A DNA stretch of 64,000 nucleotides from a virus. Location of the stretch: IMG/VR virus record IMGVR_UViG_3300031159_000070, positions 64,001-128,000 of that record. One strand, 5' to 3'. The translations under genes and the position numbers were made by a program. Below, one piece after another: positions 8,942 to 39,386 of the stretch. The notes under the pieces are model-generated. The model saw only the letters and a list, made by a program, of their open reading frames with translations, did no database searches and was not told the DNA's origin. The first letter of the stretch is position 1, and every line of letters begins with the position of its first letter.

Positions 8942-9235
8942 TTACTCTCCTGGGATCGGTTCAAAGAACTCGTCGAGTTCTGCACCGAGGACCTCGGCGT
9001 AGAGCTTGAGCTGTCCGGCGAAGACGCGCGAGCGCCCGTTCTCGTGCTGCTGCACGAGCGGCTTCGTGAAGCCGGTCAGTTCGGCCAGCGTGTCGAGCGA
9101 CACGCCGGCCCTCTGCCGCAGGCGACGCAGATTGTAGGCAACGAGCTGATTGTTCAGAGCAGCCGCCCCGAGGCCGCCGGCTCCAGATTGCCCTCGATCT
9201 TCGCTTTTCCGAGTTCGTGCTTCAGTGCGTGCCAT
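8942..9235 (-). CDS. XRE/Cro-family HTH regulator (start uncertain)
   Basis: NLRRLRQRAGVSLDTLAELTGFTKPLVQQHENG...LGAELDEFF. Confidence 0.8.
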   Translation of the reverse strand: MARTEARTRKSEDRGQSGAGGLGAAALNNQLVAYNLRRLRQRAGVSLDTLAELTGFTKPLVQQHENGRSRVFAGQLKLYAEVLGAELDEFFEPIPGE

Positions 9236-10074
9236 GCTGTCGGGAGCTCATGATAAACGTGGCCGTCGAGCGTTGCGCCGCCCTTCTCATCGGGTTCCTT
9301 CTCGAGCCCGCGCGCAATCGCGAGCTGGAAGGCCTTCTGTATCGTGATCCGCTCCTCCTTGGCAATTCTGACGGCGTAGGGGTTGTTCTTCGGGTGCCCG
9401 TACTGCTTGAACCAGATCGCAGCGTTGGCAGCGCGCGACTTGTCGATCGATGACTTAAGCCAGTCGAGCGCCATCGGCCGGCATTTCGGACCCGACTCGC
9501 CACCGATCAAGATCCAGTCGCACCCTGAGAAGTCGACCTTGTCGATTGGCCCGATCAATGGCTCGACGGACAGGAAAGCGCAGGAGACGTTGTGGCGGGC
9601 CTTGATATCGCGCAGCACGTCCGTGCGCTTGGCCACGTCATTGTTCTCGATCGACGTGCCGAACCAGAGGTGGAATGGCGCACGGTTATGCCCATATCGG
9701 CGGCGCAGGTAGCGACCGGCAACGCCTGGGCGTTTGGTGAGTAGCTGGAAGATGGTGATGGGATTGTCTTCCATTGCATCGAAGACCTGATCTCGAAATG
9801 TGTCTGGGATCTGCTCGTGAAAAATGTCCGACATTGAGTTCAGGAAGACCATCCTTGGCACGACTTCTCCCACAGCGTTTCGCAGGGGTTTCATCGCGCG
9901 AATGTCCTCCAGCCTCTTGGGGTAATAGCGAATTTCCTCGAACGGGTTTTTTCCCAACCGGTCGTTGATGGCTTCGGCATAGCAGAAGTCACATCCTGCG
10001 CTGACCTTCGTGCAACCCCAGGTGGGATTGATTGTCGTGTTGGTCCAAGAGATTCCGGTCTTCAGGACGGTCAT
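9154..10074 (-). CDS. DUF5131 (phage Gp37/Gp68) radical-SAM-like protein
   Basis: TGISWTNTTINPTWGCTKVSAGCDFCYAE (CX6CX2C), NSMSDIFH, LTKRP, LSVEPL, WILIGGESG. Confidence 0.92.
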   Translation of the reverse strand: MTVLKTGISWTNTTINPTWGCTKVSAGCDFCYAEAINDRLGKNPFEEIRYYPKRLEDIRAMKPLRNAVGEVVPRMVFLNSMSDIFHEQIPDTFRDQVFDAMEDNPITIFQLLTKRPGVAGRYLRRRYGHNRAPFHLWFGTSIENNDVAKRTDVLRDIKARHNVSCAFLSVEPLIGPIDKVDFSGCDWILIGGESGPKCRPMALDWLKSSIDKSRAANAAIWFKQYGHPKNNPYAVRIAKEERITIQKAFQLAIARGLEKEPDEKGGATLDGHVYHELPTAWHALKHELGKAKIEGNLEPAASGRLL

Positions 10075-22451: not shown

Positions 22452-25400
22452 ATGCCGGATACTCGCCTCGACGAGCTCGTCAAGCACCGCATCGGGCTTG
22501 AGAGATACCAGACGAGCATTTTGCGCCAGGTCATCCCTGTGCTGCACGACGCTGAACAGGATCTCGTGCAGATCATTCGCGAGAAGCTGTTCGATCCGCG
22601 TCTTACGCTGTCGGAGGCCCGTCGCCTCGAGACCACGCTGCGCATGGTGCGCAAAGCGCAGCTCGAGGCCTACGAAGTCATCTTCAAGCGACTGTGGAGC
22701 GAGTACCGCGGTCTGTCCGCCCATGAGGCAGACTGGGCGAAAAGCTACTATCGCGATCTGTTCGCCGTCCAGCACAGCATCGAGGTGCCTTCGGCATCCA
22801 TGCTTGTCGCCGCGGCTTTGGAGCGGCCGATGTCCGGCCGCCATCTCAAGGCCTGGGCCGACAAAATGACCGCCGAGCACATTGCCGAGGTCGAGCGGCA
22901 GATCAGGCTTGGCGTCATTGAAGGCGAGTCCATCGATCAGATGGTGCGCCGGCTCCGTGGCACCGAGGCCTTCCGGTTTCGCGATGGCGTGACGGCAAAG
23001 CAAAGGCGCAGTCTCGAGGCTCTGGTCCGCACGTCCGTCAACCACATCACGAACGCAGCGCATCTGAGCTTTCTGCAGCAGAACCCCGAGGTCTTCAAGA
23101 AAGTCCAGTTCGTTGCGGTGCTCGACAACCGCACGACGCCGCGCTGCCGGTCGCTCTCAGGCCAGATCTTCGACGTCGATAAGGCGCCCGTCCCTCCCTT
23201 GCACGTCAACTGCCGTTCGACGCTGGTCGGGCTGCCGACGGCGCCGGACGGCACACCGGCTGCTGAGCCGCTGGCCGATGTCTCATACGAGGAATGGCTT
23301 CGCGAGCAGCCGGTTGCGGTCCAGGAAGATGTGCTGGGCGTCGCCAAGGCCAAGCTCTTCCGCATCGGCGATCTCAAGCTCGATCGCTTTGTCGACCACA
23401 CCGGCAAGGAGCTGACCCTCGATCAGCTGAAGCGTCAGGAGCGTGCCGCCTGGGAGCGTACGTTTCTGACCGCCGAAGATCGCCGCGCAATGTCCGTCAT
23501 CCGACGCGTCAACAGCCTCGTCAACCGCGCGCCAGAGGACCTGAGGCCGCTGGCAGAGATCGGTCAGCGCGCCTGGCAGTTCCTGCGCTTTCATTCCAGT
23601 CAGTGGCTCGAGGCTGTCGCGACCCAATGGAGCCGGCCGGTTGATCCTGAGCTCGTCAGCCTCGTGTTCCTGCTCGATTTCTTCGATGGGCCGGTAACCG
23701 TCCAGCTCTACCGCTCATCGGCGTTCTGGCGCTCGATCATCCGCCGGGGATTGCGGCCGCGGCCGGCTCTTGTCTACCCTCATACCCGCATGCCGCGCGG
23801 GCTCATCGTGCATCCGACCGTGCGGCGTGTGCGCGGCGAGCTGTTCCCGCCGCCAGGTCGCTCACGCTCTCCGGTGCCCGTCGGTCCACGGCCGCGGCCG
23901 GGCGAAGGCATCATCATCGACATCGATCCGACCCGTCCACCGCAGCCACCGACACCCAGGCCGATCGTTCCGCCCCGCCGGCCTGACAGCATCATTATCC
24001 CTCCGGGCCGCAGAGGGCCTGCAACACGACGGCCGCCTGCCGACATGCCGGTGCCACCACCGCGCGCGCCGGTGCCGACGGAGCGCCTGCCGCACGTCAT
24101 GCGCGTCATCCCCGACAAGGGCGCCGAGGCGATCATCCCGAAGATCGCCGATGACGTGCAGTCGCTGCCGCCGCCGAGCCCGGTGCGCGTTCTGCCCTCG
24201 CCACAGCCAAGCCAGCTGCCGGCAAGAGTTCCGGCGCTCACCAACAATCTTCCGGCACCCAAGAATCCGCTGCGCATCACGGTGCCTGAGCTCGAGGCCG
24301 AGCTCGATCGTCTGCTGCCCAAGGAAGGCGCTCGCTTCAATGTCGAGGATGCGTTGCGCAATCTCTGGAACGCGTTCAAGCAGCGCGGGCACGATGGCTT
24401 CGAGATCCTCGACAGCCAAGGCGTGCCGCGGGTCAGGATCGGCATCAACGAGGATCAGCTCACCACGTTTCTCGACCGCTGGCGCGCGGCGCGTGCCGCC
24501 TTCGACCAAGCTCAGCGCCCGCTGCTGCCGGCTCCACCCGCACGTCCTGCGTTGCCCGGGGCAGCACGTGTCGCCGATCGGATCGAGGTGCGGCCGGGTG
24601 CGCAGGCGCCGAATGTCATTCATCTGCCCTATCGCCCGCCACCGCACCCATTGCCGCCCCACGGCGTACCAGGCGATCTTGCGGCTGTGGCCAAGAACCA
24701 GCTTGGCAATGGTATCAGAGCCATCGAGGATCTGCCCAAGCCACGCGCGCGTCGCCGCGTGCCGCTTGCGCCCCGCATTGCCGCGCGCCGCGCGCGCGAG
24801 GCAGAGGCGCGCCGGCTTGTCGCCGAACAGCAGATCCGCGATCTGCTTGCCGAGCTCAATGAGATCAACGCCGGGCTGGAAGGCCTGCGTCCGATCTCAC
24901 GCCAGCTGCAGGCGCGTGCCGACGTGCTGCAACGACTCACCTTGCAGAACAGGCTCGAAACGGACGTCACGGTCTATCGCCCCGTCCGCTGGGCGAACTT
25001 CGCCGAGCGTATGGGCCCGTCTCCGGCGCGACTCGATAAGGTCATCTTCGAGTCTCCGTCGTTCCTGAGCGGCACCGGGAACGAGATCACTGCCTTCGAG
25101 GCAGGTGCTCGCTTCGGCAAAGGGCCGCTTGTCGTCATGCGCATCAACCTCAAGAAGGGCGACGTCGCCCTGGCAGGCAACCGTGAGGCGCATGAGCTGG
25201 TGCTGCCGGCAGGCTCCCGCCTCAAGGTGACGGCGGTGCGCCGCATGCGCGCTTCCGAGATTCCGGCCGATCTGCGCAATCTCTACCCGCAGAACCAGGA
25301 GTTCTGGCTGGCTGACATCGAGATGGTGCGGCCAGGAGATCCGGTCGACCGTGCCATCACGGCCGCCCGCACGACCCAGCAGCGTTACGTCGACCGCATG

Positions 25401-28400
25401 CTGCGCACGCCGCTCGACAACGAGGCCGAGCAGGCCATGCGGCGCACGCCATACGCTCCGTTCCGTCAGGTGGGTGAAGGCGTTGACGAGTGGCCGGTCT
25501 ACGATCCGTCGTCCGGCGAGATGCTGGTCGGTCCGCCGAAAGCCCATCCCATCATTGTCCTTGGCCGCGAGCAGCGTGCGATCGATCCGACGGATGCGGC
25601 ATCGGCTCCGCTGTTCCGTCGGGCGCTGGGCACGCTCATCAATCGGTCCGGCCGTGCTCAGCCGTTGACGAATGAGATCGCCAAAGAGGCTGAGGAGATC
25701 GGCAATCGCTACGTCAAAGGCTTTTCTCTCGAGCGGTTCCTGCGCCGGCTCGATGCCGGCAATCTCTCGAAAGCGGATCGCTTTCTGCCTGAGCCGCGCG
25801 CCGACATCGTGCGCAAGGTGCGCGAGCTGATCGATGTCGATATGGAGCAATTCGGCGATGCCGCCGGGCCGCTCGGGCATGCGCTGCTGAAGAAGGATCC
25901 GGTGGCGTTCGCGCGCATGGTCTCGCAGCTGTCGGACGCGCGCATGAGCCAATACTTCCTCGACCGCGGCTATGATGCGACGCGCGCCGCAGTGGAGGGC
26001 GCGGAGCTCCAGCGTGGTGCCCGGCTGTTCGCTGAGCTGGTCGATGGCATCACCAAGGGCAAGGCGCGCGTCAAGTTCTACGACCTCGCCAACGTGGATG
26101 GAGCGCTCAGAACCTATCGTGGCAGAGAGCATCTGGCGCAGGCCTTTGAGGCTTGGTTCGCGCTGGAGTACAGCCCGAACCCGACCTGGCGCCGGATGAT
26201 CGATCACATGATGCCTGGGCTGGACGAGGTGATGCGTCGGGTGCTGAGGGCGCGCTCGCGCGAGGCGTTCCCGGACGTGTGGGCGCCGACGCTGCGCATG
26301 GCCCACAACCGGCGCATCGTGGCCGATCCGCGCGCCATCGATGTCGATCGTCTGACGTTTGAGCTGGAGGCGCCACCGGCCAGCATTGCCGCCGGCATAC
26401 GCGAGAGCGTGCGGCAGCGGTTCTATGACTACCTCGAGGGCGAAGGGTCGCTCGCCAAGCGCGTTCACAACCAGATCGCCAAGGACCTCGGTATCTCGCG
26501 GCAGGATGTCGAGGTGCTGATCCGTGAAGCGCAGCGCGCGGGCTGGGTCAGGGCTCAGGGTCGCGGCTTCCGCGTGGTGCCGGCCGACAGGCGTCCGCCG
26601 CGCCCCGTCGGCACGCCGGCCATCTCCCCGACGCAGCATCAGCGCGACCTATTCTACGACTATCTGGAAGGCAAGACCGGCGGCTCGGAGAAATCTCTCG
26701 GCTCGCTGAGCCAGGCTGCCTTGCGCGATCTGCAGCGCGAGATCGGCGCGACGCCGATACAGATGAGCCGCCTGACGTTTGAAGCGCAAGAGGTGGGCTG
26801 GCTCAAGCGCGATGCGCGCGGACAGCTCAGGCGCACATGGACCCGCGGTCTGGAGCGGACTGACAAGGCACCGCCGCCGCGGCCAAAGTCGCAAGATATC
26901 GAGCGGATCGAGGGGACACTTGGCACGCCTGCTGGTAGGATCGAACCGGCAGAGGCGCCGAAGCGACGGCGAGGTGACGATGGCGACTTTGGCGGAACTG
27001 GAGGCGCGGGAGAAGGACCTGCTGGGCCGGGCCCCCAAGGCGGAGGACTATCCGAACCCGGAGGCCTTCGCGGAAGCGAGAGCGAGCTGGATCCGAACAT
27101 ACGGGCCAGCGCTGAGGATCCTCCGCTCAGAAATCTCCCGACGCAGATCACAGTCCCGGGCCGCGGCAAGGTCACGTTCGGGCCGCTGAAGCAGGCGCGG
27201 CAAGCGGCAATCGACTACATGCGCGACGCGGGTCTGCCTTACAACCCGCCGCGCACCTACGTGAAAGTCGATCCGGCGCGTGCCAGGCGCATCGCCGAAG
27301 CCTATGAGGCGATGCCGCACAATCCCAACGATCCCGAGGTGAAGGCCGCCTTCAAGGCGATGATCGAGGAGACTCTGGCTCAGTATCAGTACATCAAGAA
27401 GACCGGTCTCAAGATCGAGATGATGGACCTCGATCAGCCCGACCCCTATGCCGCTTCGCCGCGGCTCGCTCATCTCGACGTCATCGAGAACAACCACCTC
27501 TGGGTCTATCCGACGGACGCCGGCTTCGGATCGAATGCCGATTTCGATGTCAGCGACAATCCGCTGATGCAGTTCACCGATGAGTACCTGAACGGCAAGC
27601 GCCTCAGGGCAAATGACGTGTTCCGCATCGTCCATGACTACTTCGGCCACTTCAAAGAGGGCGTCGGTTTCCGTGCAGATGGCGAGGAGAACGCGTGGCG
27701 CTCGCACAGCGCCATGTACTCGCCGCTCGCCCGGCGAGCGATGACGACGGAGACGCGCGGACAGAACTCCTGGGTCAACTTTGGCCCGCACGGTGAGAAG
27801 AACCGCACGGCCAAGGCCGAAGATACGATCTTCGCCGACCAGAAAACGGGCCTGCTCCCGCAATGGGTTGTTGACGAAGGCGCAGGCGATCCGCCGGACG
27901 TGACGCCCCCTGCGCAACCAGAGCCGACCCGAAACATTCTCGATCGGGCGCATCTCACAGAGCTTGTCCAGCGCATCGTCTCTGAAATGCGTGGTGTTCC
28001 GCTCGATCGCATCGCCCATCAGCGCCTCCCGGTGCGCACCGAGTCCGAACAGACGATGGTGAATGAGGTCTGGCGCCACGCCACGCTGTCGCCAGAGATC
28101 GAAAAGGTGATTTCAGGTGCCGAGTCCATCACGCTCTCTGAGCCGACCGACGGGCCCACCTACTACGATCCTGTGACGGGAACGCTTGAGATCGGCCGGC
28201 GCAATCCTTCGGCGCCTCAGGACCGGGTCTGGATCCGCCACGAGTTCGGCCACCACCTCGACCTGCCGATGACGCCGGACGGAACGGTGGTGCAGTATTC
28301 GGCCGCGCCAGAGTTCGGCCTGGCCAAAGCGATGCAGGCCGATCTCGAGCAGCTGGCGCGCAGCTACGCGCCTGATGCGAAGGTCGTCCTGCGTGCCGAG

Positions 28401-28844
28401 TCCGCGCTGCAGCGGTTCAAGGATCGTTACGGGATCGATCTTGCGAAAAACGTCTCTGATATTGGGCTTGCGCATCGCATGGCTGAATACGCGTTGACCG
28501 GCAATGCGGCGTTCCTGAAGCTGGTTGACCAGGCCGTGCGGACTGGTGCGATCAGAGACGCCAAGATCGCCAGCGAGTTCATGGTCTATTCAGACTTGAC
28601 GGCTGCGGTGACAAAGCTCAAGCTTGGCACCGGCCATCCTGAGACGTACTTCGCCGGTGGATTTGATATCGGCGAGGGTTACACGAGTCGTCATGCCAAT
28701 GAGGCATTCGCCAACTGGTTCGCGCTGCATTCGAGCGATGTGACCGGTTGGCGCCTGCTTATGCAGCAGTATTTCCCGCGCGTCGTGGAGTCCAATGCGT
28801 CGATCCTGGATCGCATGGGAGCCGATGCGCATGGCGAACAGTGA
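22452..28844 (+). CDS. MuF (SPP1 gp7-like) minor head protein fused to ART-like, winged-HTH and zincin domains
   Basis: MuF motif AVLDNRTTPRC...PPLHVNCRS; ART-like VYR/FLSGT/HELVL; FRIVHDYFGH...TTETRGQNS; HEFGH...NEAFA. Confidence 0.9.
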   Translation: MPDTRLDELVKHRIGLERYQTSILRQVIPVLHDAEQDLVQIIREKLFDPRLTLSEARRLETTLRMVRKAQLEAYEVIFKRLWSEYRGLSAHEADWAKSYYRDLFAVQHSIEVPSASMLVAAALERPMSGRHLKAWADKMTAEHIAEVERQIRLGVIEGESIDQMVRRLRGTEAFRFRDGVTAKQRRSLEALVRTSVNHITNAAHLSFLQQNPEVFKKVQFVAVLDNRTTPRCRSLSGQIFDVDKAPVPPLHVNCRSTLVGLPTAPDGTPAAEPLADVSYEEWLREQPVAVQEDVLGVAKAKLFRIGDLKLDRFVDHTGKELTLDQLKRQERAAWERTFLTAEDRRAMSVIRRVNSLVNRAPEDLRPLAEIGQRAWQFLRFHSSQWLEAVATQWSRPVDPELVSLVFLLDFFDGPVTVQLYRSSAFWRSIIRRGLRPRPALVYPHTRMPRGLIVHPTVRRVRGELFPPPGRSRSPVPVGPRPRPGEGIIIDIDPTRPPQPPTPRPIVPPRRPDSIIIPPGRRGPATRRPPADMPVPPPRAPVPTERLPHVMRVIPDKGAEAIIPKIADDVQSLPPPSPVRVLPSPQPSQLPARVPALTNNLPAPKNPLRITVPELEAELDRLLPKEGARFNVEDALRNLWNAFKQRGHDGFEILDSQGVPRVRIGINEDQLTTFLDRWRAARAAFDQAQRPLLPAPPARPALPGAARVADRIEVRPGAQAPNVIHLPYRPPPHPLPPHGVPGDLAAVAKNQLGNGIRAIEDLPKPRARRRVPLAPRIAARRAREAEARRLVAEQQIRDLLAELNEINAGLEGLRPISRQLQARADVLQRLTLQNRLETDVTVYRPVRWANFAERMGPSPARLDKVIFESPSFLSGTGNEITAFEAGARFGKGPLVVMRINLKKGDVALAGNREAHELVLPAGSRLKVTAVRRMRASEIPADLRNLYPQNQEFWLADIEMVRPGDPVDRAITAARTTQQRYVDRMLRTPLDNEAEQAMRRTPYAPFRQVGEGVDEWPVYDPSSGEMLVGPPKAHPIIVLGREQRAIDPTDAASAPLFRRALGTLINRSGRAQPLTNEIAKEAEEIGNRYVKGFSLERFLRRLDAGNLSKADRFLPEPRADIVRKVRELIDVDMEQFGDAAGPLGHALLKKDPVAFARMVSQLSDARMSQYFLDRGYDATRAAVEGAELQRGARLFAELVDGITKGKARVKFYDLANVDGALRTYRGREHLAQAFEAWFALEYSPNPTWRRMIDHMMPGLDEVMRRVLRARSREAFPDVWAPTLRMAHNRRIVADPRAIDVDRLTFELEAPPASIAAGIRESVRQRFYDYLEGEGSLAKRVHNQIAKDLGISRQDVEVLIREAQRAGWVRAQGRGFRVVPADRRPPRPVGTPAISPTQHQRDLFYDYLEGKTGGSEKSLGSLSQAALRDLQREIGATPIQMSRLTFEAQEVGWLKRDARGQLRRTWTRGLERTDKAPPPRPKSQDIERIEGTLGTPAGRIEPAEAPKRRRGDDGDFGGTGGAGEGPAGPGPQGGGLSEPGGLRGSESELDPNIRASAEDPPLRNLPTQITVPGRGKVTFGPLKQARQAAIDYMRDAGLPYNPPRTYVKVDPARARRIAEAYEAMPHNPNDPEVKAAFKAMIEETLAQYQYIKKTGLKIEMMDLDQPDPYAASPRLAHLDVIENNHLWVYPTDAGFGSNADFDVSDNPLMQFTDEYLNGKRLRANDVFRIVHDYFGHFKEGVGFRADGEENAWRSHSAMYSPLARRAMTTETRGQNSWVNFGPHGEKNRTAKAEDTIFADQKTGLLPQWVVDEGAGDPPDVTPPAQPEPTRNILDRAHLTELVQRIVSEMRGVPLDRIAHQRLPVRTESEQTMVNEVWRHATLSPEIEKVISGAESITLSEPTDGPTYYDPVTGTLEIGRRNPSAPQDRVWIRHEFGHHLDLPMTPDGTVVQYSAAPEFGLAKAMQADLEQLARSYAPDAKVVLRAESALQRFKDRYGIDLAKNVSDIGLAHRMAEYALTGNAAFLKLVDQAVRTGAIRDAKIASEFMVYSDLTAAVTKLKLGTGHPETYFAGGFDIGEGYTSRHANEAFANWFALHSSDVTGWRLLMQQYFPRVVESNASILDRMGADAHGEQ
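26980..27189 (+). CDS. nested +1-frame small protein inside the MuF gene
   Basis: GAGGTG RBS; MATLAELEAREKDLLGRAPKAEDYPNPEAFAEARASWIRTYGPALRILRSEI...; overlies a Gly/Pro linker of MuF. Confidence 0.55.
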   Translation: MATLAELEAREKDLLGRAPKAEDYPNPEAFAEARASWIRTYGPALRILRSEISRRRSQSRAAARSRSGR

Positions 28845-31107: not shown

Positions 31108-34100
31108 GTGGCCAATAAGCCAACCGATATCCACTATGAAGGCCAGATTCTTTTCGGATCTGTCGGGCAGTTCGGTCTTGGTGACCCAGGGTTTCCCCGG
31201 GGCAGCGCTGTTGGAACCGCCGCCGGCTCATCATCTGCATCTGGTGGCGGTGGCCGGCTTACCGCACCACTTCTCCCTGTCCATCTCGTCGGGCATGTAC
31301 TTTTCGGCGCGATAGGACAGTTCGGGCTTGGGGATGCGGGCGATCTCAATCCGATCGTTGAAGCCGCTGGCTCCGCATCGGCCAGCGCTGAAGCCAACGC
31401 GTCAGCGACCACCGTTCTCTCATCGACCGCCTCGGCTGTCGGTTCGGCAACCAGCACAGGTGCTGGAACCGGCATATTCGATGCGGCGGCCAGCGCCGAT
31501 GGTGACGCGCAAGCATCGGCGACTGGCCTTGGTTTGGCGGTCGTCGCGGCAGTAGGCAGCGCATCAGGAACTTCGCAAGCAACGAGTGCGAGTGTTGCGA
31601 CTGCTGCAGCCTCCGGCAGCTCATCCTCGCTCGCAGAGCTTGTCGCAGTTGGTGCTGCGACCTCGGCCGCGGCAGCTTCGAGCTCTGCCGCAGCTACAGC
31701 TGCCGCCATTGGCGCTGCTGCGGTTCAAGCTATCGGTGTAAGCACTGGATCTTCTGCAGCCGAAGGAACGTCAGCGCCCGTTGCTGCTGGAGCCGGCGAG
31801 AGCGCTGCATCTGCTGCTGTTGCCGGCTCGCTTCACGCACGAGCCGATGCGACTGGCTCGGTTTCAGGAACGTCAACCGCATCAGCTGCGGCGTTGCTGA
31901 CAGCTGCGGCGACTGGCGCGAGTTCCGCAGCAGGCAGCGCAACAGCTGCCGGGCGAGAAGTTGCCCTCCAGACGCGCGTTGACCGCGAGGGCCACGTTCT
32001 CTTCGGTGCGCTGGGCCAGTTCGGGCTTGGTGATGCCGGCGAGATCCCCGGTATCCTGCTTGCTTCGGCCGGAATCAGCGCTGGCGTAGCGGCGGCAGAT
32101 GCAATCGGGCGGTCAATCGCAACCGCTGCCGGATCGGCTGTCGCCACCTCCACCGCCGCCGCGTTTGGTATCGGCGAGATCGGCACGTCCGGAACCGTTG
32201 CCGGACAGAGCACCGCTGCGGGCGTTGGCAGCGCCATTGCTGCTGCTGCTGGATCCGTTGTCGACGCGAGCGGTTCCGCTGACGGCCATGCACTTTCACA
32301 AGCTTCCGGCGTCGGTGTTGCTATCGGCAACGCGTCGGCCAGCGCCGTCGGCAGATCAACATCTGATGCCGCTGGCACTTCTGCAGCCGTTGCTTCCGCG
32401 GTCGCGGCCGGTGCAAGCATCATTGACTCGTCAGGCGTTGCTGCGGCTGCCGCGACAGCTGCCGCGCAAGGTGCCGCCACTGCAGCCCGCGCTGGGATTG
32501 TTTCGTGTTCTGCTGCTGTCAGCGGGAACACTGCTGCCACCGCATCGGCCTCAGGCAACGCATCGGCCGAGACAACCGCTCTTGCTGATGGCGCCTCTAC
32601 GAGCGAGGCAGCTGGCAGCACATCCGCCACGGCCGATGCGGACGGGCGCGGTCGAGCTGTCGCCCCACTGAGGCCCGTTGACCGCGAAGGTCACGTTCTC
32701 TTCGGTGCGCTGGGTCAGTTCGGACTTGGCGATGCTGGCGATAATCTTACTGGCACCGTTCAGGCCGTGGGCTCGAGTAGTGGTGCGGCGCAGACATCTG
32801 CGATTGGCGCGTCCACTGCAGCAGCGGATGGCGTTGCAGCTGCTGTCGCCAGTACGAGCGGCGTTGCGTCAACGATCGCTGCCGCGTCCGGTCAGTGCCA
32901 GGCGCAGAGCGGCGTCGCCGGTGCTGGCTCGACGGTCATCAACGCAAGCGGCTCTGCTGAAGCTGCGTCCGGCGCTGAGGGGCGCGGCGCATCCATAAGC
33001 GCAGCCGCGGCCACGGCGGCAGGCGCAAGCACGACCAGCGCGAAAGGCGCATCGCGGTTTTCGGCTTATGGCCTTATCATCGCCATGGCCGCCGCGCTCG
33101 CGCTGTGGATTGCTACCCACAGCAGTATCGGCCTGTCCGTTTCTGGTGCTTCTGCTGCAGCCCGTGGGGCTTCCATCGCGGCAAGCGCAGGGCAGGCGAG
33201 TGGCACCAGTGCTGTCGATGGTGGCGGTGCATCAACGCATGCCGCATCTGGGTCAAGCGCCGGCGCAGCCACAGCATCTGCCGAGTCGGCGCTGACCGGC
33301 GAAGCGAGCGGTCTGGCGCAAGGTCTTGCAGCCGTCGAAGGTGTCGGTCAGTCGACCGCGGCAAGCGCGGGTGCTGCTGGCGGTGATGCCGCGAGCCAGG
33401 CTGTTCTGGCAGCGACTGCCAGCGCAGTCGGATCGGCGCAAGGAACCGCGAACGCTGCAGCCGACGGCGCCAGTTCCGCTGCCGGCGTCGGTACAGCGAT
33501 TGGCCAGAGCGAGGTTGCCGGCGAGGCCAGATCGTCTGCTGCATCGGCCGGATCCTCCCCTGGCCTTGCAACCGTCGAAGGCACTGGCGCGGCCACAGCC
33601 GCTGCTGTCGGTGTGTCGGATGCTATTGCATCCGTGTCGGCCGGCTTCTCGGCCACCGACGCTGGCGTCGGCGCGGTTGCCGGTGTTGCAACGGCGGCGG
33701 CGAAGGCCGAAGCGACCGCTGCCGGGACAGGCAAGGCCGAAGGATCGGTTGCTGTCCTGGGCGCTGGAACCGGCATCGCCCCGGCCGCTGGCAGTGGCGA
33801 TGGTGCTGCAGAGGCCGCAGCTGCTGGCGAAGCCGCGGCGATCACTGTCGGCGAGACGGCCGGCTCGAGCACTGTTGCTGGAACCGGCGCTGCCACCGCG
33901 GAAGGCTCCGGTTCCGCGATCGGCACCAGCGTTGTCAGCGGCGGCGCAAGTGCGACAGCTGCCGGCGTCGGACAGGTTGCTTGCGTCGCAACGTCGGAAA
34001 GCACCGGAGCTCCGATAGCGGCTGCTGCTGGTGGCGTGTCAGGCGATGCCATCGTTGATGGTCAGAGTCTGCCGCTTGTCACCCTCTCCGGCGACGGTCT

Positions 34101-35409
34101 TGCCGAGGGCTCTGCGACCGCTAACGGCGTCGTCGCCGCAACGCATGCATCCGCCGCCGAAGCCGTAGCCGCATCGCTTGTTTCAGCTGTTGGCGCTGCG
34201 ACGGCTCAAGCCCGTGGGTCCGTCGAGGCGAGCTCGAGCGTCGCCGGCGTTGTCTTCTCGACAGCAGCCGCGACCGGTGCGGCGGCGGGCAGCTCGACTG
34301 CCGATGCGGAAGCTGCTTGGACGGCAGCTGCTGCCGGCGACGCGGATGCCAGCGCTTCTATCAGTGGTGATGCGGAATCAACCGCCGCAGCTGCCGGTCG
34401 GTCCGAAAACCTGGCCGCGGTTGATGGGCGAGCTGCGGCCCGTGCTGATGCTGCAGGTGTCGGTGCCGGCGTCGCTACTGCCGATGGCGCACTTCGCGCG
34501 GATGCGTTTGCTGCAGGCTTTGGCCAAGGCGAAGCGGCAGCGGCGGCGCAAGGAGCGGCGGCGGCGGCTGCTGCCGGGGAGGTCTCCGCCAGCGCGAGCG
34601 TGGCAGGCGCAGGCGCTTCGACGGCAGCTGCTGTTGCGGAGAGTGCCGGCGCTGTTGCAGTCGAGGGCAGTGCTGCAGCCACTGCCGCTACCGTTGCAAC
34701 GGCCGAAGCTGTTGCCGATGCTCATGCGACCGGTGCTGCGACGGCGAGCGCAGCTGGTGTTGCTGCTGGTGAGGCGAGCGCTGTCGCCGATGCCCGAAAG
34801 CTCCTGTCGGGCGCCGGCGCGAGCGAGGGCCAGGCGAGCGCAAGTGCCCACGGCGTTGCGCTACGCATGGGAGCGGGCGCTGCGGTCGGCGAGGCCTCCG
34901 CGGCTGCGACGGGCCGGGCGACGCATTCGGCTGTTGCGGCTGCGTCCGGTTCCGCAGAAGTCGCGGCACAGCACGATTCGATCCTGTGGTGGGAAGGCCT
35001 GGCCTCGGGCCACGCCACCGCCGCCGGCGTCGGTAAGGCGCTGCATCAGCTCAACATCCAGTCCGATCACTGGCCTGCAGCGGCGCTCGCCGTGTCCGCG
35101 GAGCCCGCCGCTGAGATCGACGTGGTTGCGCAGGCGCCGGTCGCAATTGCTGTAAGTGTGCGTGGCGAGGCACCACCAAAGACAGCGAAGTCTCGCAAGC
35201 TGCATGTTGCCACGCGCGTGATGTCGCTGAGCGAAGTCGAAGTCTCACACGATAGTGCGATGGAAATGTCGGTCTCGAGCGGCCCGGCGGTGATCATCTC
35301 GACGCTTGTTCTCGAGCTGGTCGAGACGGGGTCGAGCAACGGACCCGAGATCGACACCGATGCATCTCATGGGCCGAAGGCAAGAATTGCAACCCGAGCG
35401 AGGTCGTGA
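31108..35409 (+). CDS. Ala/Gly/Ser-rich 20-aa-repeat fibre-like protein
   Basis: 1433 aa; long 20-residue periodicity; four (H/Q)(V/I)LFGxxGQFGLGD motifs. Confidence 0.8.
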   Translation: MANKPTDIHYEGQILFGSVGQFGLGDPGFPRGSAVGTAAGSSSASGGGGRLTAPLLPVHLVGHVLFGAIGQFGLGDAGDLNPIVEAAGSASASAEANASATTVLSSTASAVGSATSTGAGTGIFDAAASADGDAQASATGLGLAVVAAVGSASGTSQATSASVATAAASGSSSSLAELVAVGAATSAAAASSSAAATAAAIGAAAVQAIGVSTGSSAAEGTSAPVAAGAGESAASAAVAGSLHARADATGSVSGTSTASAAALLTAAATGASSAAGSATAAGREVALQTRVDREGHVLFGALGQFGLGDAGEIPGILLASAGISAGVAAADAIGRSIATAAGSAVATSTAAAFGIGEIGTSGTVAGQSTAAGVGSAIAAAAGSVVDASGSADGHALSQASGVGVAIGNASASAVGRSTSDAAGTSAAVASAVAAGASIIDSSGVAAAAATAAAQGAATAARAGIVSCSAAVSGNTAATASASGNASAETTALADGASTSEAAGSTSATADADGRGRAVAPLRPVDREGHVLFGALGQFGLGDAGDNLTGTVQAVGSSSGAAQTSAIGASTAAADGVAAAVASTSGVASTIAAASGQCQAQSGVAGAGSTVINASGSAEAASGAEGRGASISAAAATAAGASTTSAKGASRFSAYGLIIAMAAALALWIATHSSIGLSVSGASAAARGASIAASAGQASGTSAVDGGGASTHAASGSSAGAATASAESALTGEASGLAQGLAAVEGVGQSTAASAGAAGGDAASQAVLAATASAVGSAQGTANAAADGASSAAGVGTAIGQSEVAGEARSSAASAGSSPGLATVEGTGAATAAAVGVSDAIASVSAGFSATDAGVGAVAGVATAAAKAEATAAGTGKAEGSVAVLGAGTGIAPAAGSGDGAAEAAAAGEAAAITVGETAGSSTVAGTGAATAEGSGSAIGTSVVSGGASATAAGVGQVACVATSESTGAPIAAAAGGVSGDAIVDGQSLPLVTLSGDGLAEGSATANGVVAATHASAAEAVAASLVSAVGAATAQARGSVEASSSVAGVVFSTAAATGAAAGSSTADAEAAWTAAAAGDADASASISGDAESTAAAAGRSENLAAVDGRAAARADAAGVGAGVATADGALRADAFAAGFGQGEAAAAAQGAAAAAAAGEVSASASVAGAGASTAAAVAESAGAVAVEGSAAATAATVATAEAVADAHATGAATASAAGVAAGEASAVADARKLLSGAGASEGQASASAHGVALRMGAGAAVGEASAAATGRATHSAVAAASGSAEVAAQHDSILWWEGLASGHATAAGVGKALHQLNIQSDHWPAAALAVSAEPAAEIDVVAQAPVAIAVSVRGEAPPKTAKSRKLHVATRVMSLSEVEVSHDSAMEMSVSSGPAVIISTLVLELVETGSSNGPEIDTDASHGPKARIATRARS

Positions 35410-37301: not shown

Positions 37302-37601
37302 ATGAATGCTTTGGAGCAACATCTAAAGCCCGATCAGCTGTTGCGGCTGCGATGTCTCGAGCTGGCGCTCAACAACCGGCACGCGTTCTCCGATGGAGAG
37401 CGACGATCGTTCACGGAATGGGCTGATCTCTTCCAGCAGTTCGTCATGACCGGCGTGCCCTTCACGGATAATCCGTGGATCACGGGGAACGTCACCCGCC
37501 AGCATGAAATCATGCAGAAGAACCCAGAGCTTGCCAGGAAGCTCATTGCCGAAGTGAGCGAGGCTCGCGGCGAAAACTCAGCACCAGCAACCCAGGAGTA
37601 G
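37302..37601 (+). CDS. small protein with a scaffold-like C-terminal motif
   Basis: AGGAGG RBS; NPWITGNVTRQHEIMQKNPELARKL. Confidence 0.75.
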   Translation: MNALEQHLKPDQLLRLRCLELALNNRHAFSDGERRSFTEWADLFQQFVMTGVPFTDNPWITGNVTRQHEIMQKNPELARKLIAEVSEARGENSAPATQE

Positions 37602-37605
37602 TGAC

Positions 37606-37830
37606 ATGCCTGTGCAGATTCGCATGGATCATACCGGTGACACCCGCTTTACGTTCGATGCTGCCGATGAGGCGGCTGTCGCCGAAGCCGAGGCCCGTTT
37701 CAAGGAGCTGACCGGAAAGGGCTTCCGCGCCGCAGCCTTGGGTGAGAGCGGTGAGCCTGGACGTCTGCTCAAGGAGTTCGATCCGACCGTCGAGCGCACG
37801 CTCTTCATTCCGGCTCTGCAGGGCGGCTAG
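37606..37830 (+). CDS. small protein ending in Gly-Gly
   Basis: 74 aa, MDHTGD...FDP...PALQGG; AGGAG RBS. Confidence 0.8.
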   Translation: MPVQIRMDHTGDTRFTFDAADEAAVAEAEARFKELTGKGFRAAALGESGEPGRLLKEFDPTVERTLFIPALQGG

Positions 37831-37912
37831 TCCATGTGGCCACCAGAGGGGATCAATGATCTCCAGTATCTGGAAAGGGAGATCGAGCGGGCCGCGACGC
37901 GATCTCCAGTAC

Positions 37913-38479
37913 ATGGGCATGCAGGTGGTCGTGGATGCTGCGGATCAGGCCGACAACACTGGCTTGATGGGCTTACGCATCGATCGGGCTCTTCTCGATC
38001 CTGTAGACAGCGATGTCGGGATCGGCCTCTGTGCTCCCAATTTCGAGGCGGAGCTGGCTGAACACGCGCGGCGTATCTCGCAGGCCGACGTCGTTATCGA
38101 CCGCTACAATGATTTCGGGGGCGACAAGAAGGCCAGCGAGAAGTCCATCAAGCTGCTCAAGGAAAACCTGACGCCCAAGCAGCTCGAAACCTATGAGAAA
38201 CATCGCTGGTTCGAGGTGAAGGGCGGCGACACCGGCCGGACCTACCGCATCTATCACCGCCGGCAAATGAACGTCTCGGTGCGCAACTGGCGCGGCAAGC
38301 ACAAACACGGGCTCTGCTTCCTGCCCACCGGCGGCCTCGCCATTGGAGATATCCTGCTCGGACAGAAGATCGCGCTCGAGCTCTACGAGCACGATGCCCT
38401 CAAGGTCGCCAACCGGTTCGATCATGACCCTGGCATTTGGGTCACGCCCTTCGAAACTTCTTTCGAAGAAGTGGTCTAG
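37913..38479 (+). CDS. putative partner of the GG protein (start uncertain)
   Basis: LLKENLTPKQ...FEVKGGDTGRTYRI...N...GLCFLP...GDILLGQKIALE...AN. Confidence 0.7.
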   Translation: MGMQVVVDAADQADNTGLMGLRIDRALLDPVDSDVGIGLCAPNFEAELAEHARRISQADVVIDRYNDFGGDKKASEKSIKLLKENLTPKQLETYEKHRWFEVKGGDTGRTYRIYHRRQMNVSVRNWRGKHKHGLCFLPTGGLAIGDILLGQKIALELYEHDALKVANRFDHDPGIWVTPFETSFEEVV

Positions 38480-38536: not shown

Positions 38537-38611
38537 TGTGGGGTGGAGCAGTGGTAGCTCGCTGGTCTCATACGCCAGAGGTCGTCGGTTCGAATCCGAC
38601 CCCCGCAACCA
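38537..38611 (+). tRNA. tRNA-Met(CAT), initiator-like scaffold, encoded CCA
   Basis: TGTGGGG/CCCCGCA acceptor stem, GAGC/GCTC D stem, CTGGT-CTCATAC-GCCAG anticodon arm, GTCGG-TTCGAAT-CCGAC T arm, ACCA end. Confidence 0.93.
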
Positions 38612-38704
38612 ATCGATCCCATCCGAGATAAAAGCCGCCGGGGATGGGAAAAAGGAAGTGGTGACAGCGCGCATCTCGCGCCAACACACGGAGGCTTGCC
38701 ATTC

Positions 38705-39139
38705 ATGTTCAAGAGCGCAGCATACCCCGATACTCCGCTCGATCACTCCAAATCGCGCGATTTCATGCGCACCAACCTCGGCCTTTCGCCAGTACAGGAT
38801 TCGCTCGAACTGAATGGCGAGGCGGCAACCGACGTCACGCTCGAAGCCTATCAGACGACGCTCGTCTCGGCAGACGCTGGCGCCCAATACAATCTGCCGG
38901 ATGGCGAATACGTTGGCCAGCGCAAGCTGCTGAAGGCCGATGTCTCCGACGCAGGAACATGCGTCGCTTCCGACGCGGCCAAGGCGAAATTGATCGTCAA
39001 TGGACTCCATGGCCAATCGGCAGCGAACGTCACTGCGCTCACCTTCGATGCCGATGGCGAACTCGCTCTCCTCGAGTGGACAGGCGCGAAATGGAATGTC
39101 GTCTACGCAACCGCTACGGTCACGGATGATTCGGTATAG
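38705..39139 (+). CDS. beta-rich virion decoration/fibre-like protein
   Basis: YNLPDGEYVGQRKLL...LTFDADGE..LLEWTGAKWNVV; GGAGG RBS. Confidence 0.6.
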   Translation: MFKSAAYPDTPLDHSKSRDFMRTNLGLSPVQDSLELNGEAATDVTLEAYQTTLVSADAGAQYNLPDGEYVGQRKLLKADVSDAGTCVASDAAKAKLIVNGLHGQSAANVTALTFDADGELALLEWTGAKWNVVYATATVTDDSV

Positions 39140-39159: not shown

Positions 39160-39190
39160 AACGGGCACCTTCGGGTGCCCGTTGTATTTT
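39160..39190 (+). terminator. UUCG-capped terminator hairpin
   Basis: AACGGGCACC-TTCG-GGTGCCCGTT followed by a T-rich tract. Confidence 0.75.
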
Positions 39191-39290: not shown

Positions 39291-39386
39291 ACCATCGGCT
39301 CATTGCGAGCGATGAGCTATGGGCCCTCCTTGGGCGTTGTTTCCTCCCTAGACTTGGGCCGTTCGGAAATCCGGACGGCCTTTTTC
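39291..39386 (+). ncRNA. mmgR: alpha-r8/MmgR (Rfam suhB)-like small RNA
   Basis: CCCTCCTTGGGCGTTGTTTCCTCCCTAGACTTGGGCCG core, terminator GGCCGTTCGG-AAAT-CCGGACGGCC-TTTTT, 5' hairpin and its own promoter. Confidence 0.85.

Follow-up and report, generated by a model that had tools for sequence, protein, structure and literature searches.

The 64,000-nucleotide stretch of DNA analyzed here (referred to as the window) corresponds to bases 64001-128000 of the 137,047-base provirus record IMGVR_UViG_3300031159_000070, whose completeness is estimated at 95% by CheckV, and carries on its plus strand two small neighboring genes, designated A and B, that are the subject of this study. Gene A (37606..37830, +) encodes a protein of 74 amino acids (aa) that, on the basis of the open reading frame (ORF) call, a structural model, and profile comparison, is predicted to be a ThiS/MoaD-like beta-grasp protein. 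Gene B follows it and encodes a conserved domain of 98 aa (38132..38425, +) with a predicted UBC/RWD-like arrangement, in which an invariant Asn (codon 38270-38272) and an invariant Cys (codon 38315-38317) are located. The conclusion that A and B are one co-inherited, co-translated unit is well supported by comparison of the loci described below, and the two genes are regarded as a self-contained, mobile two-gene module.

The A protein ends in FIPALQGG, with the Gly-Gly (GG) codons at 37822-37827 and the stop codon TAG at 37828-37830, as had been noticed in an earlier examination of the letters of the window without database searches (hereafter the sequence-only reading), in which a 74-aa protein ending in PALQGG was picked out. 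A word-based search yielded 23 relatives of A, all of which possess the GG end, and their combination with the loci from genomes and viral contigs gave 58 ORFs with 53 distinct sequences. The GG is directly followed by the stop codon in 53/53 of these, and the only positions conserved at 100% are F32, G73, and G74; the sequence-only reading had proposed a possible minimal conjugation system in which these glycines should be kept, and they are. Fused forms of A were generally rejected, because the 50 longer database matches, comprising 36 gene calls that are over-extended at the N-terminus and finish in GG, together with 14 truncated or frameshifted copies, contain no natural precursor or fusion form and no intact in-frame extension, save P0210, in which the stop codon is lost and read through. 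An apparent A–B fusion in a metagenome-assembled genome (MAG) was also rejected, since this copy of A (L025 5999-6223) is frameshifted, with its N-terminal half in the frame of B, and is either a pseudogene or a sequencing error.

An AlphaFold2 model of A built from 43 sequences (predicted local distance difference test (pLDDT) 90.9, predicted template modeling score 0.78) is a compact, well-folded domain with the order strand-strand-helix-strand-strand, the tail of which is modeled less confidently (mean pLDDT of 61 over the last four residues). The lists returned by fold searches, which the sequence-only reading had suggested as a check against the beta-grasp fold, consist almost entirely of beta-grasp proteins, including ubiquitin-like, PB1, RBD, MoaD, and TtuB structures. 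Foldseek against the PDB gave no match at E ≤0.001, and the top rows were PB1 domains, ubiquitin, and NEDD8 (E 0.03-0.2, TM 0.35-0.51). The fold search of BFVD returned two unnamed viral proteins (E 2.2e-6 and 1.6e-4) and an uncharacterized protein of Agrobacterium phage Atu_ph07 (E 0.034), none with a known function, and profile searches with the A and B alignments against PDB sequences gave chance rows only (E ≥1). Alignment of the A family with a reference of 13 ThiS/MoaD genes from five host genomes, which have ThiS-family genes of their own, gave 87.2% in hhalign (E 3.9e-6) over 64 columns, with GG placed on GG, compared with 0.2% and 0.1% for two unrelated control alignments. The C-terminal run of A, an acidic residue, two hydrophobic residues, and Pro before the GG, is also like that of the aligned host MoaD genes, and among the named Atlas clusters a ThiS family comes nearest (0.76, a lead only); the Atlas clusters nearest A are 71-83% viral. 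Because the Pfam ThiS model (PF02597) does not match A at E ≤0.1 and also missed every A locus in the five genomes, A is called a distant ThiS/MoaD-like protein outside that Pfam family. No family for A or B was found in Pfam, PHROGs, NCBIfam, or PADLOC. The assignment of A as a beta-grasp protein that probably derives from ThiS/MoaD stock and has an obligatory free GG is well supported by the model and the alignments.

The conserved domain of B is widespread. A profile built from 32 sequences and searched against 1.84 billion sequences yielded, when representatives were taken at 50% identity, 7,449 representatives at E ≤0.001, 4,575 at 1e-10, and 624 at 1e-30, and among the 150 best representatives (proteins of 118-464 aa) the domain lies at or close to the C-terminus in nearly all. 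In a set of 214 distinct rows composed of our own loci and these 150 representatives, 12 columns (L, Q, V, Y, N, C, P, D, Q, K, E, and E) are invariant in 214/214, so that the Cys assigned a possible catalytic role in the sequence-only reading is retained in every row; the conservation of the GG and of the Cys (53/53 and 214/214, respectively) is far beyond chance. The model of B reaches pLDDT ≥90 in blocks over residues 71-170 of the 188-aa protein and displays two helices, four strands, the fourth of which ends at the Cys, a short loop, and two further helices. The overall architecture of B is that of a conserved C-terminal domain preceded by a variable, at times absent, N-terminal part, and its description as a Cys-bearing domain with a predicted E2/RWD-like arrangement is well supported. 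A PADLOC search with A and six B proteins gave no match save one chance-level row (E 0.078). The best-scoring representative, P0039 (377 aa), contains two B-domain stretches and represents a tandem duplication of the Cys domain.

The copy of B in the window has undergone a partial deletion. The original ATG of B at 37834, 3 bases past the stop codon of A, is followed by 19 codons (MWPPEGINDLQYLEREIER; 37834..37890, +) that are the same as residues 1-19 of the close relatives P0025 (318 aa) and P0026 (291 aa), both of which begin with this stretch, and the frame is thereafter unrelated to B up to a stop codon at 38061. In BLASTP against P0025, frame 1 of the window corresponds to residues 1-19 and frame 2 to residues 156-313; since the matches are split over two frames, B in the window is without approximately 136 N-terminal codons and its two pieces are out of frame. 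The deletion junction (37891..37912, +), at which P0025 residues ~20-155 are gone and the flanking retained parts stand in different frames, is not a single-assembly artifact, because a contig from a second sample (run X3), covering 37851-38074 with 0 differences, is identical across it. The retained frame of 188 aa begins at the first ATG after A (37913..38479, +) and is identical to a called gene on record (P0024); the longest ORF in this frame (37742..38479) carries the core GLCFLP...GDILLGQKIALE, and the retained frame contains HGLCFLPTGGLAIGDILLGQKIALE, with the Cys codon at 38315-38317. The sequence-only reading was right to place this core in the gene after A and overlooked that the gene is not intact, its first 19 codons being followed by a change of frame. 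A consensus scan detected neither a promoter-like site nor a clear start signal before the 188-aa frame at 37913. Because the out-of-frame deletion took the N-terminal part of B, the window copy may be weakened or dead; the remnant could still work, because some B genes naturally have no such part (frames from stop to stop of 95-175 aa in L004, L021, L023, and L024, and the 122-171-aa proteins P0030-P0038).

Linkage of the two genes was examined in several collections. At 25 loci found via A, the B domain is located directly downstream in 23, and the remaining two end at the contig end 571 and 312 bases past A, yet begin with the usual start of B. Five MAGs contain 14 B places and 11 A genes, with B after 11/11 A, and in a sample of the same order, B was detected in 5/300 other genomes (nine places) with A just upstream in 9/9; a class-wide sample gave B in 0/300 other genomes, 14 first-look candidates having been scored per genome in both samples. 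A GG-ending A was also found upstream of B in 28 of 29 viral contigs with B, the 29th of which begins at the contig end, and a search by tblastn with three B queries against 50,697 phage records gave no match. In 58 pairs, the inferred start of B overlaps the stop of A in 31, lies within 30 nucleotides of it in 21, and is further away in 6. Absence of linkage elsewhere would have counted against the sequence-only reading, and these counts show the genes side by side.

The distribution of the pair extends beyond viruses. Twenty-two loci belong to Hyphomicrobiaceae, Xanthobacteraceae, Rhodomicrobium, and unclassified alphaproteobacterial MAGs, and B is present on 13 Bradyrhizobium plasmids and has copies in cultured Bradyrhizobium strains, which agrees with the recurrence in rhizobial genomes that the sequence-only reading had mentioned. 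On plasmid p195_1 of Bradyrhizobium sp. 195, both genes (WP_247973846.1 and WP_247973912.1) are annotated as "hypothetical protein" and A ends in LVGG. Some genomes possess multiple copies: G008 has five pairs, and both G544 and G572 have three. The pair is not purely a phage device, because it also occurs in ordinary chromosomal and plasmid settings. An orphan B domain on plasmid pCB82_1 (L065 5575-6330) shares its open frame with ~130 aa of unrelated sequence on the upstream side and has no A nearby, the annotated coding sequence covering the last 101 aa only; orphan B genes retain the Cys.

The complex of A with the B domain was predicted in three runs, in which each protein was given as an alignment. 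The interface score ipSAE was 0.89, 0.89, and 0.90, compared with 0.02 for the best control; the benchmark mark for this score is reached by 58/80 solved complexes and 2/110 mismatched pairs, and it is only rough here because our own alignments were supplied. The runs agree in ≥96% of contacts, with a partner pLDDT of 93-94. On the B domain, the interface consists of residues 62-70, the first of which is the invariant Cys62, residues 45-46 beside the invariant Asn, and the helix 73-89, and on A it consists of the loop between strands 1 and 2 (residues 5 and 7-12), residues 41-54 and 66, and the tail 68-74 including the GG. In the model, the beta-sheet face of A is placed on the long helix of B, and the GG tail lies along the strand and loop starting at the invariant Cys, so that complex prediction brought the GG to the Cys-bearing segment, as the sequence-only reading had envisaged. 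In how the sheet of A sits on the long helix and how its tail leads to the Cys, the model resembles the closed E2~ubiquitin arrangement. The predicted complex supports binding of A and B to each other.

Among all 26 loci that were first collected, A and B are the only genes in common. Their neighbors on MAG chromosomes are ordinary genes, encoding a PP2C phosphatase, a PDZ-Sel1 protein, an MFS transporter, MsrA, acyl-CoA dehydrogenase, CoA transferases, a glyoxalase, a cyclase-TPR protein, cytochrome c, Lon, GroEL, and a molybdenum hydroxylase, and on viral contigs they vary from contig to contig and include helicases, DNA polymerase A, DUF5906 primase-like proteins, terminase, portal, capsid, or glycosyltransferases. 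A head-assembly role, which could be suspected from the place of the pair between MuF and scaffold/capsid genes, was rejected because each phage group has other neighbors and many copies are surrounded by ordinary chromosomal genes. A conserved third gene was likewise rejected, since the only recurring genes, PP2C and PDZ-Sel1, are confined to 9-10 related Hyphomicrobiaceae loci, which is read as shared ancestry of these genomes. No CD-NTase was found among 40 annotated neighbor proteins, and no biosynthetic genes are conserved beside the pair. In one viral contig group, the large terminase gene (L043 3992-7126 and L044 5777-8911; 1044 aa), which lies downstream of A–B after two small ORFs, contains an intein with a LAGLIDADG domain.

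The gene content of the window is myovirus-like according to Pfam, with a large terminase, a DUF4055 portal, a 2130-aa MuF protein, and a Gp13-like major capsid protein, together with baseplate J, tail sheath, tape measure, and gpD-like hub genes. Immediately upstream of the pair, an ORF of 99 aa without a family match in Pfam or PHROGs (37302-37601) is probably co-transcribed with A, because its end is only 4 bases from the start of A; a consensus scan for promoters and terminators revealed nothing specific ahead of A, and no RNA run carrying the sequence was listed among the sequencing runs. Downstream, a tRNA-Met gene with the anticodon CAT (38537-38611) starts 58 bases past the stop codon of B. 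The summed depth of metagenome contigs at this stretch is far above that of its flanks and many loose contig ends are found there, for which reason the stretch is taken to be common to tRNA genes of other organisms. Past the ORF 38696-39139, two strong terminator-like hairpins occur on the plus strand (39160-39183, 10 pairs, and 39356-39381, 11 pairs), and the transcription unit holding A and B may end at these hairpins. The MuF protein (22452-28844) has the Phage_Mu_F domain at its N-terminal residues 146-258 and a very long unannotated rest. Between its gene and the small-gene cluster with A and B lies an ORF (31108-35409) encoding 1433 aa rich in Ala, Ser, and Gly, which has no Pfam match and repeats the motif GH(V/I)LFG(A/S)(L/V)GQFGLGD(A/P)G at least four times. 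Upstream of the terminase region, the minus strand (9157-10074, -) encodes a DUF5131 protein (E 1.2e-65). Megablast of 6.5 kb of the window against GenBank phages gave no match.

The favored, though tentative, explanation for these observations is that the module is a stripped-down tagging unit, composed of a ubiquitin-like protein (Ubl) and an E2-like enzyme, on phages, plasmids, and chromosomal islets, which probably would serve in phage–host or element–host conflict. To our knowledge, every ThiS/MoaD or ubiquitin-like protein that has been studied is activated by an adenylating enzyme, and for proteins of the ThiS/MoaD type it is established that an E1 acting in trans can serve several carriers. 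The terminal glycine of A could be activated in trans by a MoeB/ThiF-type adenylating enzyme of the host, and the activated A could then be handed to the Cys of B as a thioester. The variable N-terminal part of B may select the target. This combination of activation by a host enzyme, a thioester on the Cys of B, and target choice by the N-terminal part is plausible, although somewhat short of probable. A more far-reaching version appears unlikely, namely that phages, plasmids, and chromosomal islets of soil Alphaproteobacteria and of other hosts use two-protein ubiquitin-like tagging, in which a tag derived from ThiS/MoaD, a borrowed MoeB/ThiF, and a miniature E2 with a swappable N-terminal targeting part would tag host or rival-phage proteins, as an intermediate between sulfur carriers and ubiquitination without a dedicated E1, E3, or deubiquitinase.

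Several results weigh against such a tagging unit. Foldseek of B against the PDB gave no usable match, Pfam at E ≤0.1 gave no family for B in the window, and Pfam and PHROGs gave single chance-level rows only for 35 full-length B relatives. In hhalign, B scored 0.2% against a five-sequence Prok-E2_B alignment, the other Prok-E2 families having been compared through Pfam only. The HPN (His-Pro-Asn) motif and its spacing before the catalytic Cys are a feature of E2 enzymes. This motif is absent from B, where 15 residues separate the invariant Asn from the Cys that follows, the His preceding this Asn is not conserved, and the gap between the Cys and the next helix is only ~8 residues; the modeled topology of B resembles the non-catalytic RWD domain more closely than a classical E2. 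The suggestion in the sequence-only reading that the partner is a divergent E2-like Cys enzyme is accordingly supported in part, by the predicted UBC/RWD-like arrangement and the invariant Cys, and finds no counterpart in a match to an E2 sequence model. Activating and deconjugating enzymes are likewise missing from the searched surroundings. ThiF (PF00899) was found in 0/4 viral records (two of which are 95% and 100% complete), the whole 137,047-base provirus included, and so was Prok-JAB (PF14464), whereas PF01398 and the Bub serine protease were not searched; neither E1 nor JAB was found among the 40 annotated neighbor proteins, nor ThiF or JAB in Pfam scans of 30 window ORFs. The remark in the sequence-only reading that the window contains no E1/ThiF or JAB gene thus holds for PF00899 and PF14464 over the entire provirus, PF01398 lying outside the search. 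B also occurs without A at 3/14 places in the five MAGs (all in one genome, one being a fragment) and on plasmid pCB82_1 of Bradyrhizobium sp. CB82. Finally, the complex model may lean on memory of solved E2–ubiquitin complexes, and a confident, co-translated 1:1 complex is to be expected of a stable heterodimer no less than of an E2~Ubl intermediate that exists transiently.

In a different interpretation, A and B form an obligate non-covalent heterodimer. An RWD/UEV-like B would bind A, the GG tail of which would plug a narrow groove in the way that the MoaD tail plugs a groove in MoaE, and the two would constitute a toxin–antitoxin-like or regulatory couple, with the upstream A neutralizing or regulating B and with the invariant Cys, Asn, and Asp of B serving another activity or the groove. 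The position of a small gene upstream of B and translationally coupled to it, as in type II toxin–antitoxin pairs, fits this interpretation, as do the several pairs per genome, the varied contexts on chromosomes, plasmids, and prophages, the patchy spread seen in the order and class samples, the very confident complex model, and the lack of an E1 linked to the pair; bacterial RWD-like, Cys-less domains of the E2 fold have moreover been proposed as Ubl binders (PMC1779556, in its accessible text). However, the conservation of the Cys and the GG in all distinct rows is stricter than packing alone usually needs, and A, with 55-93% identity to A of the window, is at least as well conserved as the B domain (38-56%), which is unusual for an antitoxin. 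A also has no DNA-binding domain, no toxin–antitoxin, toxin, or defense model matches either protein, and the orphan B genes keep the Cys. A heterodimer of this kind is regarded as the main alternative, although a somewhat unlikely one.

The kinship of A with ThiS and MoaD could alternatively reflect sulfur transfer, in which host enzymes would adenylate A and convert its C-terminus into a thiocarboxylate, as in ThiS, MoaD, CysO, and TtuB, and the Cys of B would take or pass on the sulfur for a thiolation reaction that benefits the element. Overlap between the gene of a carrier and that of its partner enzyme is common, as in moaD–moaE, and the ThiS family as the nearest named Atlas cluster (a lead only) and the MoaD-like C-terminal run of A point in the same direction. 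This role is very unlikely, since MoaE, ThiG, CysM, TtuA, and rhodanese are missing from the fold lists of B, which has no Pfam match, the pair is flanked by no conserved biosynthetic genes, multiple copies and phage carriage are unusual for cofactor pathways, and the Pfam ThiS model misses A and the A loci of five genomes. It is highly improbable that the pair is a decoy, the alternative offered in the sequence-only reading, that is, a phage Ubl and an E2-like protein that soak up or misdirect the E1 of Bil, Bub, or type II CBASS (cyclic oligonucleotide-based antiphage signaling system) and have no targets of their own. Many copies are part of ordinary chromosomal regions or of Bradyrhizobium plasmids, where the annotated neighbors include no phage genes, A is like ThiS/MoaD rather than the Ubls of defense systems, although these Ubls were not directly compared, and no defense or anti-defense model, including those of PADLOC, gave a match. 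The features that would suit a decoy are the frequency of the pair in uncultured phage contigs of varied gene content, the predominantly viral Atlas clusters nearest A, and the lack of an E1 of its own.

Bacterial Ubl/E2 systems are already known, and none of the libraries Pfam, PHROGs, NCBIfam, and PADLOC has a name for the A–B family. With Bil (BilABCD), Bub, and the E1/E2/JAB clusters of Iyer et al. (2006), the pair shares a small beta-grasp protein with a C-terminal glycine and a partner of E2-like fold, as predicted for B, as well as carriage on mobile elements and a tie to phage–host conflict, which for A–B is a probable one (PMC10557695, PMC11601596, PMC1779556). In the accessible text of these reports, the clusters always contain an E1-like adenylating enzyme and usually JAB or another peptidase, neither of which was found near A–B, and their Ubls are precursors that are trimmed, whereas A is made ending exactly at the GG; B, in addition, has no match to Prok-E2, UQ_con, or PADLOC models. 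E2-CBASS (type II "short" CBASS) resembles what is predicted for the pair in possessing a Cys enzyme of E2 fold, no E1 in the operon, and a C-terminal tail of the partner in the E2 active site (10.1101/2022.05.25.493364). As far as the accessible part of that report describes it, however, this E2 first cleaves the C-terminus of its cGAS-like partner, a possible energy source for the thioester, whereas A has nothing past the GG, and the partner is a nucleotidyltransferase and not a beta-grasp protein (10.1101/2022.05.25.493364). In what these sources make available, Bil, Bub, type II CBASS, the Iyer et al. 2006 clusters, and E2-CBASS each have an E1 or cleave a C-terminal extension (PMC1779556, PMC10557695, PMC11601596, 10.1101/2022.05.25.493364).

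ThiS/MoaD carriers such as MoaD–MoaE are similar to the pair in the beta-grasp fold, the free GG, the profile-level match, and the coupling of the carrier gene to a partner predicted to accept the tail. They differ in that B is unlike MoaE, ThiG, and other known partners, no context of a cofactor pathway exists, Pfam ThiS misses A, and A–B is multi-copy and phage-borne. UEV domains bind ubiquitin non-covalently. RWD/UEV domains share with the modeled B domain the order of helix, four strands, and two helices and the short flap, and no RWD/UEV sequence model, as tested through Pfam only, matched B. Cys-less RWD-like domains are described in PMC1779556, and RWD and UEV domains are not known to carry this Cys, whereas in B the flap opens with an invariant Cys. 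No description of a bare pair of a Ubl and an E2-like protein was found in the literature searched, with supplementary files and most subscription journals outside its scope.

If the Cys of B takes the GG end of A as a thioester, no ubiquitin-like conjugation unit simpler than this pair would be known. Such a unit would tie the sulfur carriers ThiS and MoaD directly to an E2-type enzyme, which bears on the origin of ubiquitination, and would represent an additional class of phage- and plasmid-borne protein modifiers in phage–host conflict. If A and B are a non-covalent couple instead, they would still constitute a large undescribed family of mobile two-gene modules.

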